Assembly (NCBI GenBank): GCA_965205975.1
Contig: OZ242195.1
Span: 4,608,001-4,672,000 of the forward strand
Origin: Candidatus Latescibacterota bacterium
Lineage (GTDB): Bacteria > Latescibacterota > UBA2968
DNA length: 64,000 bases
Direction: 5' to 3'
Shown here piece after piece: positions 5,191 to 25,683 of this stretch (positions are counted from its first letter, which is position 1; every line of letters begins with the position of its first letter). Below the pieces are notes generated by a model. That model was not told the DNA's origin and made no database searches. It was given only the letters and a program-made list of their open reading frames with translations. The translations under genes and the position numbers were made by a program.

Positions 5191-6862
5191 TCTCAATTGG
5201 CCCACGCTCATTTTTCTGGTGGGGTTGATCGGCTTTTTTGTCTTGTTTTTGTTTTATCCTCTATGGTATGCTTTTGTGCAGTCGCTGGTGGTGGATGGCA
5301 GGTTCACGTTTGCGTTTTACGAATTAATGGTGACGAGTCCGGTTTATCAGGAATCTATTCTCAATAGTTTTCGGCTGGGGATGATTACGACCATTGCGAC
5401 TACGTTGCTCAGTTTGCCTCTGGCGTTTTTGCTGGTGCGATACGATTTTGCTGGCAAAGGATTTCTCAATGGTTTGATTCTGGTGCCTATGGTTTTGCCC
5501 CCGTTTGTAGGGGCGATTGGCATGAAGCAGATGTTTGCGCGTTTTGGTTCTATCAATTTGTTGCTTCTGGATTTGGGGCTTATCGATCAGCCCATAGATT
5601 GGTTTGGCGGCGGTGGCTTTGTGGGTGTGGTGATTTTAGAGGTGCTGCATCTCTACCCCATTATGTATCTCAATGTGGCCGCTGCGCTTGCCAATGTCGA
5701 TCCGAGTCTGGAAGAGGCGGCGCGCAATATGGGTAGCCGCGGGTTTCGCCTTTTTCGCACGGTGACATTTCCGCTGATGTTGCCGGGCTATTTTGCCGGG
5801 GCGATTATTGTTTTTATCTGGGCGTTTACCGATTTGGGGACGCCGCTTATTTTTAATTATCGCCAGGTTGTGGCGGTCGAGATTTTCAATTCTATTGAGG
5901 ATATTAACGAAAATCCGATGGCTTACGCGCTCGTTGTCTTTGTGTTGCTGTTGACGGTCTTTTTCTTTTATCTGTCAAAGGCGACGCTGGGCAATCGCCG
6001 CTATGAGATGATTGCGCGAGGGTATATCAGTTCGGGATCGCGCCCCGCTTCTCGCGGGATGACGGTGTTGATTTACGCCGCGATGCTGTCGCTTACGGGC
6101 ATTGCTCTGATTCCGCATATGAGTGTGTTTTTGACGTCTATTGCCGAACGCTGGTTTATGGCTGTGCTGCCCCAGGAGACGACCGGGCGATTTTATACGA
6201 TGGTTTTTGAACATCCGATGTCTCTGTCCAGTATTGAGATGAGTCTGATATTGAGTGTGTTGAGTACGACGCTGGATGTTGTTCTGGGTATTGCCATTGC
6301 CTATTTGTTGACGCGTACCCGCATCCCGTATAAGGGCGTTTTAGATGCGGTGGCGATGTTGCCTTTAGCCCTGCCCGGTCTGGTGCTGGCTTTTGGGTAT
6401 TTGGCGGGATATTCGGGCACTTTTTTAGATGCGCGGCACTATCCCGTGCCACTGCTGGTTATTGCCTATGCGGTGCGGCGGTTGCCCTATATGGTGCGCG
6501 CGGCGTATGCGGGATTTCAGCAGACGAGTGTGACGCTGGAAGAGGCGGCTCAGAATTTGGGGGCTTCCCGGTTGCGCACGCTTTTTCAAATTACATTTCC
6601 GCTGATTTTAGCCAATCTGGTGGCTGGCGGTATTTTGTGTTTTGCGTTTGCCATGCTCGAGGTGAGCGATAGTTTGATTTTGGCACTCAAGGACGAGTAC
6701 TATCCCATCACAAAAGCGATTTACGCGCTTATGGGGCGCATTGCAGATGGCGCGTATTTGGCCAGTGCGATGGGTGTTTTTGGTATGGTGTTGCTGATTG
6801 TGAGTTTGTTTTTGGCCGGGCGATTTTTGGGCAGGCGCATGGGCGAGTTGTTCCGCGCATGA
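5177..6862 (+). CDS. ABC transporter permease with duplicated TM domain (FbpB type)
   Basis: Two EAA motifs (LEEAARNMG, LEEAAQNLG); many TM segments; GGAGG before ATG 5177. Confidence 0.92.
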   Translation: MKRFDLNWPTLIFLVGLIGFFVLFLFYPLWYAFVQSLVVDGRFTFAFYELMVTSPVYQESILNSFRLGMITTIATTLLSLPLAFLLVRYDFAGKGFLNGLILVPMVLPPFVGAIGMKQMFARFGSINLLLLDLGLIDQPIDWFGGGGFVGVVILEVLHLYPIMYLNVAAALANVDPSLEEAARNMGSRGFRLFRTVTFPLMLPGYFAGAIIVFIWAFTDLGTPLIFNYRQVVAVEIFNSIEDINENPMAYALVVFVLLLTVFFFYLSKATLGNRRYEMIARGYISSGSRPASRGMTVLIYAAMLSLTGIALIPHMSVFLTSIAERWFMAVLPQETTGRFYTMVFEHPMSLSSIEMSLILSVLSTTLDVVLGIAIAYLLTRTRIPYKGVLDAVAMLPLALPGLVLAFGYLAGYSGTFLDARHYPVPLLVIAYAVRRLPYMVRAAYAGFQQTSVTLEEAAQNLGASRLRTLFQITFPLILANLVAGGILCFAFAMLEVSDSLILALKDEYYPITKAIYALMGRIADGAYLASAMGVFGMVLLIVSLFLAGRFLGRRMGELFRA

Positions 6863-6879
6863 TGAAAGTGCAAGAGGAT

Positions 6880-9800
6880 ATGATGAATTTACGGAGATGG
6901 ATAATTATTTTTGCAGGGGGTGTGATAGGCCTGGTCAATGCGGCGATGGCACAGAATACACCATGGCGCTATGATTTTGAGGCGTTGTCAGGGGCCTATC
7001 GAGCAGATGCAGGCAGTCAGGTTTCGCTTTCGACGAGGCGTTACAAATGGGGCGCGCAATCCCTGAAGTGGGAATGGCAGAATAATGGATGGCTTGTGTT
7101 CACGGATCCCGCGCCGGGACGTAGCGACGCTTTGACCGGGTTTCGAGCGTGGGTGTACAACGAGGAGGCACTCGATGAGAAGCTGATCTTTGCATTTGGC
7201 ACGGAATCCGAATTGGCGACAAACAATCCGCGCTATCAGTTCGAGTTTGGCTTGAATTTTACGGGCTGGCGGACGATGTGGATCCATTTCGAAGAGGATG
7301 CGCGGAACAGTGCTTATAGGGGTGCGGCAGATGGGCGTGTGACGGCGTTTGAGATCCGTGCGTCGAATAGTGGGACTGTGTATCTGGATTTGATGGAGTT
7401 GGTGGAGAGAATTCACCACAGGCGGTCTGCTGACGCACAGGTTCCCTTTGTCAATGCAAATATAGCAGATAGAACTCGCGAATATCGGTGGCGTAGAAAC
7501 AGATTGCCAGGTCCGCTTCTTTCTCGGATTACCAATGGTGAGAGGCTGGCTTTTGAGACGATTGCGGCGCGATATGAGGCATGGGTGTTCGGCAACAGGG
7601 TAAAGGATGATCAGCGGGAGCCCGTGAGGATTCGGCTCAATGAGCTTGAGGATTACATAAGGCGCGGGTATAGCAATCTGGCAGATTACGAGATTCGACG
7701 CGAGGATGACCGCATTATAGGAAACCCCCTGTTTGCGGCGCGGTCGCCCTATACCCCTTCTTTTCAGAGTGTTTTTCAGGGGGTTTTGTTGCGTCTGGTG
7801 CTGGATTATCGGTTGAATGGCAATGAGGAGGCCAAAGATCGCGTGATAGATCTCTTCGATTATCTACACGATCAGGGGTGGGCAGATGGCAGTGGTATTG
7901 GCGCGTTGCACCACGAGTTTTTGCGGATTGCTGGCTATGCTCATGCGGTGTATTTGATGCGTGATATTCTGGGGGATACACAGCGGCTGGAACGGGAGTT
8001 AGCGAGTTTGAAATGGTATAGTATGTTTGGCGAGTTGTATGAACAGACCTGGGATCCGGGCACGAATGCGGATTTTTTGCGTTCGGTGGCGATGTATCGG
8101 TTGTTGTGTATTTTGATGATGGACGATTCGCCCGAGAAGGTGGCGAATATGCGCCGCTATGTTGTATGGCTCAACAATGCGCTATCTATTGCGCCGGGGT
8201 GGTTGGATACGATTAAGCCAGATTTTGTGGGGTTTCACCATCGGGGTATCTATGCCAATGCGTATGCGCCACACGCTTTTCACGTGGCTTCTGTTCTGGT
8301 GTATTTGTTGCACGATACGCCTTTTGCAGTTGCAGATGATAAGCGCAATAATTTGAAGCAGGCGCTGTTGACGGCGAGGGTGATGGCGAATACGTATGAT
8401 ATTTCAACAGCTATCGGTGGTCGCTTTCCGCTCAATACGACGGTAACCGATGATCTTTTGCCAGCATATATGTATATGGCTTTGGGTTATCCTGCGGTGG
8501 ATGCGGAGTTGTCTGGTGCGTTTATGCAGCTTTGGAAGCCGAAGTCGCAGTTGTTGATCGAAGGTTTGTTCGAACAAGCATCTGCAGGAATCTTGTATTT
8601 GCATACGCCTGGTGCCGCGCAAATGATGGCGGATTTTGCAGAGGCAGGGCATCTTCCTGCTGCTCCGCCTTCGGGGCACTGGACGCTGCCTTATGGCGCG
8701 CTGTCCATTCATCGGCGTGGGGACTGGATGGTGAGTATGAAGGGGTGGAGCAAGTACGTGTGGGATTACGAGTCGTCAAATAGCGGGGAAAATCAACTCG
8801 GTCGTTATTTGAGCTATGGTTCGATGCTGATTTACAGCAGTGGCGATCCTGTTGGCCGCGAGGCGAGTGGGATTGTTCGGGATGGGTGGGATTGGAGTAT
8901 GTGGCCGGGTACGACGGTGATTCGCTTGAGTCATGCGCAGCTCAAGCACGAGGGACGGGATCGCAATTTTTCGGATGAGACTTTTGTGGGTGGGGTGAAT
9001 ATGGGAGGAAAAAATGGCGTGTTTGCGCTGAAGTTGCACGATACGAGGTTCAATACGAGTTTTCGGGCGGTTAAGACGGTGTTCTGTTTTGACGATGTGT
9101 TGGTCTGCTTGGGGTCTGGTATTGAGAATGATGATGGGGGGCCTGCGACGGTGACGCCGTTGTTTCAAGCGGCTATTTCTGAGGACCGTCCTACGGAGGT
9201 AAATGGGGAGCGTGTAGGTGCGATTCCATACATGTTTGCAGGGACCGCGGGACAGAGGACCTGGCTGATGGATTCAAGGGGGAATGGGTATGTGATTCCA
9301 GATGGGGGCGATTTGCGGGTGCAGCGTCAGGTGCAAGCTCCTGGAGATTTTGGTTATGATAGCGGTGGTACAGGAACTTTTGAATTGGCGTATCTGGATC
9401 ACGGCCCCATGCCTCGTGGTGCGTCATATCACTATGCCGTGCTGGTTCAGGGGTCGCCGGATAGGGTAAGCGCGTTTGCCAATGCACCCCAGTATGATGT
9501 GTGGCAGCAAGATCGTTATGCCCATATCGTGAATCATGTCGGGATGAAAATGACGGGCTATGCGTTGTTTGACAGGGGTGCAAGGCCAACAGGTGGTCCG
9601 ATTGTGTCTGTGTCTTTGCCGAGTTTGGTTATGACCCACGAGGTAGGTAATGGGTTATTGGTTTCGGTTGCGGACCCGGATTTTGGTTGGAGTTGGGAGA
9701 TCCAGACGCCGCATCGGCAAGATGGTTCGCTAATTGTCAATCAGGCGAGTGAGCCCCGGAAAGTAGAGGTGACAGTGCGCGGAAAATGGTGCTTGGACCA

Positions 9801-10146
9801 GTCCTATGACCTGGTAGAGATTGTAGAGGAAAGCGAGGATCAGACGGTTATGGCGTTTATCTGTCAGGATGGCAAGACCGTAGAAGTGAAACTGATTGGG
9901 GCAGATGTCAGTTTTAAAAGTCCGGATTTTGATGGAAATGGTGTGGTCGGGATCGCGGATTTTTTGCTATTTGTCAACCACTTTGGTCTGTCGGAGGGGG
10001 ATGCGGGTTTTGACGCAAAATACGATCTGGATGGCAATGGCATAGTGGGGATAAGCGATTTTCTGATTTTTGTAGAGGGATTTGGCAAGCCGGTGAGCGG
10101 AAAACCAGTGGCTCTCCGAAATGGGAGCGAAAAATTGGGGTCGTGA
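6880..10146 (+). CDS. Polysaccharide lyase family 8, chondroitinase ABC-like, with C-terminal dockerin/EF-hand-like domain
   Basis: Signal peptide; LNFTGWR, DQGWADGS, IKPDFxGFHHxxxYxxAY, NQLGRYLSYG, GWDW motifs; C-terminal DFDGNGVVGIADF repeats; start 6880 or 6883. Confidence 0.85.
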   Translation: MMNLRRWIIIFAGGVIGLVNAAMAQNTPWRYDFEALSGAYRADAGSQVSLSTRRYKWGAQSLKWEWQNNGWLVFTDPAPGRSDALTGFRAWVYNEEALDEKLIFAFGTESELATNNPRYQFEFGLNFTGWRTMWIHFEEDARNSAYRGAADGRVTAFEIRASNSGTVYLDLMELVERIHHRRSADAQVPFVNANIADRTREYRWRRNRLPGPLLSRITNGERLAFETIAARYEAWVFGNRVKDDQREPVRIRLNELEDYIRRGYSNLADYEIRREDDRIIGNPLFAARSPYTPSFQSVFQGVLLRLVLDYRLNGNEEAKDRVIDLFDYLHDQGWADGSGIGALHHEFLRIAGYAHAVYLMRDILGDTQRLERELASLKWYSMFGELYEQTWDPGTNADFLRSVAMYRLLCILMMDDSPEKVANMRRYVVWLNNALSIAPGWLDTIKPDFVGFHHRGIYANAYAPHAFHVASVLVYLLHDTPFAVADDKRNNLKQALLTARVMANTYDISTAIGGRFPLNTTVTDDLLPAYMYMALGYPAVDAELSGAFMQLWKPKSQLLIEGLFEQASAGILYLHTPGAAQMMADFAEAGHLPAAPPSGHWTLPYGALSIHRRGDWMVSMKGWSKYVWDYESSNSGENQLGRYLSYGSMLIYSSGDPVGREASGIVRDGWDWSMWPGTTVIRLSHAQLKHEGRDRNFSDETFVGGVNMGGKNGVFALKLHDTRFNTSFRAVKTVFCFDDVLVCLGSGIENDDGGPATVTPLFQAAISEDRPTEVNGERVGAIPYMFAGTAGQRTWLMDSRGNGYVIPDGGDLRVQRQVQAPGDFGYDSGGTGTFELAYLDHGPMPRGASYHYAVLVQGSPDRVSAFANAPQYDVWQQDRYAHIVNHVGMKMTGYALFDRGARPTGGPIVSVSLPSLVMTHEVGNGLLVSVADPDFGWSWEIQTPHRQDGSLIVNQASEPRKVEVTVRGKWCLDQSYDLVEIVEESEDQTVMAFICQDGKTVEVKLIGADVSFKSPDFDGNGVVGIADFLLFVNHFGLSEGDAGFDAKYDLDGNGIVGISDFLIFVEGFGKPVSGKPVALRNGSEKLGS

Positions 10147-10163: not shown

Positions 10164-10197
10164 AAAAAAGCCGCCACACAATGTGGCGGCTTTTTTT
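10164..10197. terminator. Bidirectional intrinsic terminator
   Basis: AAAAAAGCCGCCACA-CAA-TGTGGCGGCTTTTTTT between convergent genes. Confidence 0.9.
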
Positions 10198-10474
10198 ATT
10201 CCTTAGAATGCGATTTGTCCCAGATGGGTTTTACTTTTTCGATGACTTCAGCATCGGTCGGGCTGGATGCGACGATGTTCGTAAATTCTTCAGCTTCAAC
10301 TCCGAGTTCCTCCAGGAACTTTCTGTCAGCTGGTCACGGATAGACGTAGTCACCGATGCAGCCTCGCAATTTGGCGCGGGCTTTATCTGTAATGCGCGGG
10401 AGCCAGGGCATGTCGCCCATGTAAAGCTGACGGCTGCGCGGTCTAAAATCAACAGCGGAACTGAGTTTGTCCAT
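10196..10474 (-). CDS. DUF5069-like small protein with in-frame UGA at codon 47 (candidate selenoprotein, 92 aa)
   Basis: AAGGAGG RBS; MDKLSSAVDFRPRSRQLYMGDMPWLPRITDKARAKLRGCIGDYVYP-(TGA)-PADRKFLEELGVEAEEFTNIVASSPTDAEVIEKVKPIWDKSHSKE; TTGCTA-17-TATGTT promoter upstream. Confidence 0.75.
10305..10320 (-). promoter_or_regulatory. Candidate bacterial SECIS element
   Basis: AGUUCC-UGGA-GGAACU hairpin starting 13 nt after the UGA at 10336-10334. Confidence 0.65.
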
Positions 10475-10572
10475 TGATTCCTCCTTCAGGTATAATGGCT
10501 TTTACATGTCATAACATAGTGATTTTGCCAGTGAATAGCAAGTTAGAAAGTGGGGCCGCCGGTGGAATAAGA

Positions 10573-20858: not shown

Positions 20859-21785
20859 ATGGACAGTCTGTTTCACATAATTGAGGCGCAGCAATTTAGT
20901 CGAGATATCATGGATGAGATTTTTGGTGTGACGCGAGAGATGGAGAATGTGGTCAGCCGTTATGGTTCGAATATTTTGAATCGGCGGATTATGGCGACTT
21001 TATTTTACGAACCGAGTACGCGCACGCGGTTGTCTTTTGAAGCGGCGATGTATCGCCTGGGTGGCGAGGTGATTACTACAGAGAGTGCGCGGGAGTTTTC
21101 ATCAGCGGCAAAGGGTGAGACGCTGGAGGATACGATCCGTATTGTAGAGGGGTATTCCGATGTGATTGTGTTGCGGCACTACGAGAGCGGTTCTGCACGG
21201 CGGGCGGCAGAGGTGGCGTCGATCCCCATTCTCAATGCGGGTGACGGACCGGGGCAGCATCCCACGCAGGCACTTTTGGATGTGTACACGATTCAGAAGG
21301 AGATCGGCAGGTTAGATGGTATTCATGTGGCATTGGTCGGCGATCTGGCAAATGGCCGGACAGCGCGGTCACTGGCTTATTTGTTGACAAAGTACGAAGA
21401 TGTGAAGTTGTATTTTGTGGCGCCAGATATGGTGCGTATGAGAGATGATATCAAGGGGTATCTGACAGAACACGGGGTGGCGTTTGAGGAAGAAGACGAT
21501 CTGATGAGCGTGATGTCGAAGGTGGATGTGGTGTATCAGACGCGGATTCAGCGAGAGCGATTTGGCGATCGGATACAAGATTACGAGCGGGCGCGGGGAA
21601 AGTATATTATCGATGTGGAGACGATGTCGGCGCTTTCGGAGAATGCGATTGTGATGCATCCCCTGCCCCGGGTTGATGAGATTGATCCGGCTGTTGATAC
21701 AGATCCCCGTGCTGCGTATTTTCGCCAGGCACATAACGGTGTTTTTATTCGCATGGCGCTGTTGCAGATGGTGTTGGACGTGTGA
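20859..21785 (+). CDS. pyrB: Aspartate carbamoyltransferase catalytic subunit
   Basis: FYEPSTRTRLSF, HPTQALLD, YQTRIQRER, MHPLPR. Confidence 0.97.
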   Translation: MDSLFHIIEAQQFSRDIMDEIFGVTREMENVVSRYGSNILNRRIMATLFYEPSTRTRLSFEAAMYRLGGEVITTESAREFSSAAKGETLEDTIRIVEGYSDVIVLRHYESGSARRAAEVASIPILNAGDGPGQHPTQALLDVYTIQKEIGRLDGIHVALVGDLANGRTARSLAYLLTKYEDVKLYFVAPDMVRMRDDIKGYLTEHGVAFEEEDDLMSVMSKVDVVYQTRIQRERFGDRIQDYERARGKYIIDVETMSALSENAIVMHPLPRVDEIDPAVDTDPRAAYFRQAHNGVFIRMALLQMVLDV

Positions 21786-21790
21786 AAGGT

Positions 21791-22216
21791 TTAAGATAGG
21801 TTCTCAAGGTCTCTTTTAAATACCAGGAGTACAATAGCCCCAGATAGCGATTCCGTTACGGCAATCCGACTTTGTTTGTCGTAGAAAAATCCCGAAAAAT
21901 TTCGTCCTGACGTGGAAAATGTGATTTCAAATTTTGAATTTACAGCGTAATTCCCATCTGTCTCCCAAACACTCCGATCCGGACTGCCAAAGTGCGCATA
22001 TAAGCGATATGTTCTGTCCGGGTTTAATTCAATAAATCCAGTGGGCGGATTTTTTTCCGCTTCGCGATTTCGATAGACCAGAGCGTGTCCGCGGCCCGAA
22101 TCAATTGTAACTGCCTGCAATGTGTAAATCCCTGCCACGGCCTGTGGCGATGTGGGTAACTCCGCGCCACAGGTACTCAAGAGCAATCCCAAAAAAATAA
22201 TCGCGATCCGTTTCAT
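21791..22216 (-). CDS. Hypothetical lipoprotein (possibly lipocalin-like)
   Basis: MKR + hydrophobic stretch + LSTC lipobox; beta-rich body. Confidence 0.55.
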   Translation of the reverse strand: MKRIAIIFLGLLLSTCGAELPTSPQAVAGIYTLQAVTIDSGRGHALVYRNREAEKNPPTGFIELNPDRTYRLYAHFGSPDRSVWETDGNYAVNSKFEITFSTSGRNFSGFFYDKQSRIAVTESLSGAIVLLVFKRDLENLS

Positions 22217-22344
22217 AACAACCTGTCTCCAGGTGCTCTTTGCCGCTCAAATCATAAGTGTTCTAAATTAATCCAACTGCTTCGTTTATGCGAGTATTTT
22301 CTATCACCTTGACGGATTAGCAGTTGTGCGAGTATATTGTGCTT

Positions 22345-23265
22345 ATGATTTCTGATGAGATGAGAAGACGCATCGCCGCGCTCAATCGCCGCGACTTGAA
22401 ACACGCAGATGAGGTTTCGGAAGCCGAGGGGCAAGTAGAGCCTGAAGTTCGGTCTGTCCGTGGAGAGAGGCGCGCGCCCGATCCCGGTGAGTTGCGCGTG
22501 ATGGCTACTGCGTCCGATGCGCGATTGCATCTCGCGCTGGACGAGGTGACACAGGGCGAGGTGATTCATACACCCGCAGGTACATTTCTGTTGATTGATC
22601 AGACTGTTCAAGAGTTTCTGAGCGGTGGCGGGCGGGCGTTTGGTGCGCGATACGAACGCGCGATAAGCGCGTTACATGCGGGTAATGTGCCACACGATCC
22701 GTATGATACGTTTCATACTTTGATTGATGCACGCGCCGAAGATGTGATTTACGTCGATATTGAGACGACGGGGTTGACGGCTGGTACGCCGCTGTTTTTG
22801 ATTGGCGTGTTGGGGCATTTTGATGGCGATTTGCGCGTTGTGCAGTTGCTGGCGCGAGATTATACGGAAGAGGCTGCGTCGTTGTCGCATTTCGTCACAA
22901 TGTTAGATGCTTCGAGGGTGATTGTGAGCTTTAATGGCAAGTCGTATGATTTGCCCTATATCCGCGACCGGTGTTTGTTTATGGGTGTGCCGTTTCGGCT
23001 GCGACAGGCGCATATCGATATGTTGCATGTGGGGCGTCGTATATGGGGCAGGCAGTTACCCAATTGCAAGTTGCAGACTTTGGAACAATATATTTGCCGC
23101 CGCACCCGGCAAGGCGATATTCCAGGTGCTGAGATTCCCAATGCGTATCACCGATTTGTTAAGTCGGGAAATGCCGTGCAGATGCGCGATATTTTGCATC
23201 ACAATGCGCTGGATCTGCTGACGACGACAGAGGTGTTGTTGCGTGTGCTGGAGGGGGAGAGGTGA
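22345..23265 (+). CDS. RNase H-like (YprB/RNase_H_2) DEDD exonuclease-domain protein
   Basis: YVDIETTGL, SFNGKSYDLP, HIDMLH, HNALD. Confidence 0.85.
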   Translation: MISDEMRRRIAALNRRDLKHADEVSEAEGQVEPEVRSVRGERRAPDPGELRVMATASDARLHLALDEVTQGEVIHTPAGTFLLIDQTVQEFLSGGGRAFGARYERAISALHAGNVPHDPYDTFHTLIDARAEDVIYVDIETTGLTAGTPLFLIGVLGHFDGDLRVVQLLARDYTEEAASLSHFVTMLDASRVIVSFNGKSYDLPYIRDRCLFMGVPFRLRQAHIDMLHVGRRIWGRQLPNCKLQTLEQYICRRTRQGDIPGAEIPNAYHRFVKSGNAVQMRDILHHNALDLLTTTEVLLRVLEGER

Positions 23266-23275
23266 AGGGTGCCTT

Positions 23276-25683
<2,408 letters not shown>

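Follow-up and report, generated by a model that had tools for sequence, protein, structure and literature searches.

Bacterial selenoprotein families and the DUF5069 domain

Decoding of UGA as selenocysteine (Sec) by SelB at a hairpin lying within the open reading frame (ORF) is established bacterial biology, and it is the basis of the decoding that we propose here for short proteins with the DUF5069 domain (Pfam: PF16798). The only solved relative of these proteins is PDB 3OMD from Leptospirillum rubarum, which is annotated as 'unknown function'. Among described selenoproteins, the closest parallels are the DUF523, DUF1858, DUF3179, DUF166 and DUF1573 families of PMC13188914, which, like the family presented here, were predicted from the pairing of Sec with Cys together with a SECIS-like hairpin and are of unknown function; they are Pfam families other than PF16798. 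By the criteria in that paper, bacterial SECIS (bSECIS) elements have a stem of 4-16 bp, a loop of 3-9 nt with G at position 1 or 2, a spacing of 16-37 nt and a free energy no higher than -7.5 kcal/mol. Predictions of new selenoprotein families appear regularly, nine of them in the deep-Sep paper, and BSepDB, as far as the covered part of its description goes, searches only already reported families.

The locus described below resembles bacterial genes with in-ORF bSECIS elements decoded by SelB in having a UGA where homologues have Cys, a small G-containing loop 19 nt downstream and a genome with selA, selB, selC and selD. It differs from them in that its product lacks CxxU and UxxC motifs and has a predicted fold that appears mainly helical rather than thioredoxin-like. 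It likewise resembles PF16798 and 3OMD in passing the Pfam cut-off, in sharing the predicted fold and in placing residue 47 opposite the 3OMD Cys; it differs in being a short form, with a UGA and a hairpin instead of a Cys codon. The sequence-only reading of this DNA had left its novelty to a comparison with catalogues, and there neither Table 1 of PMC13188914 (a 2026 inventory of 119 families and subfamilies) nor NCBIfam (no family for the readthrough protein at E up to 1) holds DUF5069/PF16798. Term searches of the covered portions of the deep-Sep paper and its four supplements did not find DUF5069, and the covered SelCysML text does not contain 'DUF'. Among the papers open to full-text search, none was found that names the family, whether as DUF5069, PF16798 or 3OMD, and within the literature portion searched for selenoproteins in Latescibacterota or Poribacteria only a hydrogenase paper matched. 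We consider it probable that the DUF5069 short forms constitute a hitherto unreported selenoprotein family, one whose small helical fold would be new to selenoenzymes.

An intact, stand-alone DUF5069 gene

The gene lies on the minus strand at positions 10196-10474 of the window (the whole 64,000-nucleotide stretch of Candidatus Latescibacterota DNA that was analysed) and is supported by its Pfam match and its orthologues. It runs from an ATG (10474-10472) through 46 codons to a TGA (10336-10334), and then through 45 sense codons to a TAA (10198-10196), giving a short-form protein of 92 residues on readthrough with a predicted Sec at residue 47 (Sec47). A Shine-Dalgarno sequence, AAGGAGG (10480-10486, minus strand), stands 5 nt ahead of the ATG, and motifs of the AGGAG/GGAG type also precede the start codons in the relatives listed. 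The TAA overlaps the A-run of an intrinsic, likely bidirectional terminator (10164-10196; 15 pairs, z -6.4), which the gene shares with a convergent gene for a polysaccharide lyase, whose end is at 10146; GC-rich hairpins of a similar kind follow the stop codon in the relatives listed. The sequence-only reading had proposed precisely this layout, with the ribosome-binding site at its head and the TAA inside the terminator, and every coordinate of it was recovered. The promoter that it had also proposed survives in part: a consensus promoter scan reported no site upstream, the sequence TTGCTA-17-TATGTT (10513-10541, minus strand) scoring only 8/12 and thus under the scan threshold, while the layout TTGCNA-17-TANNTT is seen upstream in 20/20 same-genus loci listed, as would suit a likely sigma-70-type promoter. 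The DUF5069 gene is intact and stand-alone; in this lineage it lacks a fixed partner and is flanked by a promoter-like motif and a terminator of its own. The convergent gene (6859-10146, plus strand) codes for a 1095-aa polysaccharide lyase with Lyase_N, Lyase_catalyt and Lyase_8 domains and a weak dockerin-like C-terminus.

As had been pointed out earlier, the DUF5069 gene is missing from the ORF list, which at this locus holds only an antisense frame of 98 codons and an out-of-frame one of 73 codons. The former (10181-10477, plus strand, 98 aa), being open over the same bases, could in principle be the conserved feature, with the DUF5069 frame as its shadow; against this, the ribosome-binding site, the promoter-like motif and the Pfam match are all on the minus strand, and differences between strains fall where the DUF5069 frame tolerates them. 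The latter come from RNA data, in which 18 runs contain 0.20-0.33 of the words and four runs from four studies were compared. Contigs of related strains cover the gene in 4/4 runs and bridge the TGA in three of the four, those of two studies ending at 10202. Among 40 listed of 49 strain differences none touches the TGA, and the 15 listed within the gene all change the third base of a minus-strand codon, which would be the first base of a codon in the antisense frame; we regard the antisense frame as a vanishingly improbable source of the conservation. The same contigs give only a weak hint of transcription, since they were picked by this stretch, are unstranded and come without a DNA control.

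Conservation of the in-frame UGA and its hairpin

With the UGA read through, the protein matches PF16798 over residues 12-85, across the TGA, with E 1.5e-16 and a score of 61.2 bits against a gathering cut-off of 27, which confirms the DUF5069 membership first proposed from motifs; the match covers only profile positions 4-77 of 133, hence a short form and not the full length. The in-frame UGA (10334-10336, minus strand), the predicted Sec codon, occupies the site of the family's conserved Cys (YxYP-U). Among the 150 best library representatives, Cys is found at the aligned position in 110/172 domain rows, namely in 104/132 single-domain rows versus 6/40 rows of tandem proteins, so that tandem multi-domain relatives mostly lack it, and Sec47 also aligns with the Cys of 3OMD. 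The Cys that had been expected opposite the UGA is thus present in homologues, and the objection that they might lack it falls away. In this genome, a paralogue with two DUF5069-like repeats (G000:C1:598716-599603, plus strand) keeps the Cys in its second repeat and lacks it in the first; relatives show comparable matches, in open frames about 290-480 codons long.

We collected 160 loci from genome and metagenome collections (the best 80 of 300 and the best 80 of 120), with some genomes overlapping those of the separate search for relatives, and counted 159 after one locus (L118) could not be parsed. The codon at the site among these 159 best-matching loci is TGA in 119, TGC in 27 and TGT in 13, with neither TGG nor any other codon in a single one. 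The 119 TGA loci listed are labelled as Latescibacterota (39), Poribacteria (11) and Gemmatimonadota (6), or come from metagenomes (60) or without a label (3); all seven Chloroflexota loci and the single Opitutales locus among those listed have Cys. A search of 140 genomes of the phylum recovered 105 matching at E 1e-15 or better, all in the same class; a TGA lies within the match in 92 of these, whereas in the remaining 13 the match contains no stop at all; a private mutation or a sequencing error, either of which had been named as a way for the prediction to fail, does not account for such a distribution. The frame past the TGA is open for 39-52 codons in 118/119 TGA loci listed and for 25 codons in the remaining one, and the proteins of these loci diverge down to about 45-50% identity.

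The segment after the TGA is under purifying selection: over codons +12 to +42, pN/pS is 0.09 among 18 same-genus TGA genes and 0.35 among all 28, as against 0.03 (within the genus) and 0.24 (over the 28 genes) before the TGA. That the UGA is a true stop, whether in a pseudogene, through a sequencing error or at the end of a functional peptide of 46 residues, would find some backing in the intact two-domain DUF5069 paralogue elsewhere in the genome and in public catalogues, whose entries include proteins stopping at this codon. Among the 150 best library representatives, 11 terminate exactly at YxYP, just ahead of the site. Such endings are, however, the mark of genes cut at the UGA, shortened entries being the expected product of stop-based gene calling, and termination is hard to square with a TGA common to the 119 divergent loci listed, with the open frame beyond it or with pN/pS of 0.09-0.35 in that segment; we hold it to be exceedingly unlikely. 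Public proteins with Trp at the site or cut just before it are P0003-P0006, P0012; P0032, P0049, P0052, P0054, P0057, P0060, P0069, P0072, P0074, P0087 and P0099.

Downstream of the UGA lies a SECIS-like upper hairpin with a 6-bp stem (10305-10320, minus strand), comprising AGUUCC (10320-10315), a UGGA loop (10314-10311) and GGAACU (10310-10305). The loop is 19 nt past the UGA, exactly as had been noted from the sequence and inside the 16-37 nt range. Its 4-nt loop, 6 bp and 19-nt spacing conform to bSECIS geometry; the -7.5 kcal/mol limit is reached only with the lower stem, as the upper hairpin alone has -5.8 kcal/mol and the predicted extended stem beneath it (10291-10332, minus strand) -12.7 kcal/mol, the latter being poorly conserved, with lower pairs variable in relatives. 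On its own the hairpin is within chance (z -1.79; 11/200 shuffles fold equally well), and a comparable one is found in 358/22,802 readthrough-like TGA frames of this genome; it is raised above chance because it is conserved together with the TGA. Among the loci listed, the best hairpin has at least 5 bp and its loop at +19 in 117/119 TGA loci versus 3/40 Cys loci. The loop is UGGA in 90/92 distinct TGA sequences, and 90-92 of them preserve the inner four pairs; one stem pair is G-C in 74 and C-G in 15 of the 92, a compensatory change, and the pair adjacent to it is A-U, G-U, U-A or G-C in 85/92.

The choice among synonymous codons in the stem is likewise fixed: TTC for Phe in 90/92 TGA sequences versus 15/22 Cys forms, CTG for Leu in 90/92 versus 23/36, GAA for Glu in 83/86 versus 8/18, and GAG in 90/90 TGA sequences. 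An Asp codon close to the stem but not part of it is variable, with GAC in 74/92 TGA sequences. Two same-genus genomes, G011 (locus L034) and G018 (locus L036), have TGC for TGA and retain selA and selB, and in each of these Cys forms a stem pair is disrupted by a single synonymous substitution. On a tree built with the site masked there are eight state changes and four well-supported independent pairs, about three going as expected and none the opposite way (median p 0.25); the association of TGA with the hairpin is without phylogenetic significance because the independent pairs are too few.

The genome, searched as a single contig of 5.56 Mb, codes for the complete Sec machinery, and the objection that this might be lacking is thereby removed: selA (582 bits), selB (388) and selD (371) all score above their cut-offs, and tRNA-Sec(UCA), the selC product, is encoded immediately downstream of selD. 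The selD gene carries a UGA of its own, with a hairpin at the identical 19-nt spacing. Over the 49 of 80 genome loci covered, selA is found in 26/28 TGA genomes and 18/20 Cys genomes, so that its presence does not separate the two forms; the two TGA genomes without a selA match are drafts. Two further TGAs in the genome (G000:C1 4439674, plus strand, and 4358871, minus strand) each have a hairpin 19-20 nt downstream and, judged by their motifs, likely belong to two more selenoproteins, one a CxxU protein resembling SelW/Rdx and the other containing UGSC; Table 1 of PMC13188914 has both names. At about 21,300-25,400 of G000:C1, six rows of the TGA scan show a repeated palindromic unit with differing flanks, which suggests a CRISPR array.

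The presence of Trp at the site in 5/32 database homologues would fit decoding of the UGA as another residue (Trp, Gly or Cys), whether an altered genetic code or leaky readthrough independent of SelB were the cause. Yet among the stops that close long open frames in this genome TGA ranks first (690/1,748), the sole tRNA with a UCA anticodon at default settings is tRNA-Sec, and a changed code would not predict a hairpin fixed at +19. As TGG stands at the site in 0/159 loci listed, the Trp entries most likely reflect gene-caller readings with table 4, and decoding as one of these other residues is in our view very improbable. Decoding as Sec, by contrast with both the stop and the other residues, is very likely, given the DUF5069 match across the TGA, the Sec machinery, the pairing of TGA with Cys, the conservation of the hairpin and the purifying selection; we thus predict a 92-residue DUF5069 selenoprotein, and the Sec-containing product first surmised from the bare letters is supported by the pairing, the conserved hairpin and the machinery. 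SelB carrying Sec-tRNA would dock on the G-containing loop, 19 nt past the UGA, to deliver Sec; in the absence of selenium, translation would halt at residue 46.

Fold, gene neighbourhoods and the predicted role of Sec47

An AlphaFold model of the protein from 29 sequences (pLDDT 78.5) is mainly helical and places residue 47 just ahead of a helix (residues 48-57), with invariant Arg, Asp, Lys and Tyr residues beside it. The model matches 3OMD with Z 11.2 (rmsd 2.2 Å over 79 aligned residues; the next match has Z 4.8), and Foldseek agrees (TM 0.74 by query). These fold searches returned nothing beyond 3OMD, and hence no functional homologue; no thioredoxin-fold row is among the matches listed, an absence that argues against no family. 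The predicted protein sequence is without a CxxU, UxxC or UxxS/T motif, and a conserved resolving Cys sought among 98 Sec forms was not found, 49 of the 98 being devoid of any other Cys. In the Latescibacterota Sec forms, 30/35 have exactly one other Cys, at -8 (11) or +24 (19) and never at both, corresponding to residues 39 and 71 of the protein; those of Poribacteria have no other Cys. A Cys at residue 39 or 71 is possibly a lineage-specific resolving Cys. Among 24 scanned proteins of the Cys relatives, fusions were found to cupin (3/24) and DUF2249 (1/24) domains.

Across the 159 loci listed there is no shared gene partner, and neighbours vary by lineage: an rsmD-like gene is upstream in 47/159 and pheA downstream in 26/159. 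In 40/159 (L101, L109, L114, L177, L206 and 35 more), spanning several phyla and both Sec and Cys forms, the gene directly upstream codes for an unnamed, roughly 350-aa protein whose kinase-like matches are weak (E 0.005-0.02 with the Bud32 model, falling well short of the cut-off); its homologue in the present genome (G000:C1:2675425-2676351) is unlinked, about 1.9 Mb away. A fusion of glutaredoxin with thioredoxin reductase is encoded upstream in 6/159 (one Poribacteria clade) and a flavin reductase-like protein downstream in 10/159; these redox neighbours, a minority, lend faint support to a redox role. Between the rsmD-like gene and the DUF5069 gene of the window stand genes for a DNA methyltransferase (N6_N4_Mtase; 12974-11667) and a CfrBI-like restriction endonuclease (11652-10573), both on the minus strand; the place looks like an insertion site, since the rsmD-like gene is directly adjacent in 14/17 close loci.

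If the protein is a selenoprotein, the chances are about even that Sec47 acts as a single reactive selenol, probably in redox chemistry. This view draws on the general role of Sec (PMC13188914, in the covered portion of its section 7), on the position of residue 47 at a helix start beside invariant residues in the model, and on the lack of a fixed second Cys. Sec47 would then serve as a lone, exposed nucleophile, which a substrate oxidises or modifies, and, as there is no conserved resolving Cys, we propose that its oxidised form would be re-reduced by an outside thiol system. The main alternative, that Sec47 is a metal ligand, is possible if rather doubtful, and some other role seems unlikely.

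The decoding mechanism itself is ordinary; what it would reveal concerns the organisms and the family. Were the prediction to hold, the selenoproteome would be extended into Latescibacterota and Poribacteria by a family that is near-universal in one Latescibacterota class and shared with Poribacteria, and in which Sec and Cys have switched repeatedly, even where genomes keep the Sec machinery. Annotation would be corrected as well: public catalogues overlook these genes, truncate them at the UGA or show Trp at the site. As a rule, bacteria bear the cost of Sec only where the residue is catalytic or binds metal, and for that reason the Sec form would mark the reactive position of DUF5069. A single Sec in this setting may represent a novel type of catalyst, in which one residue carries out redox chemistry or handles metal. 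For an uncharacterised family with one solved structure, the Sec position would point to the active site of DUF5069 proteins as a whole, a reactive position that makes a direct test possible.
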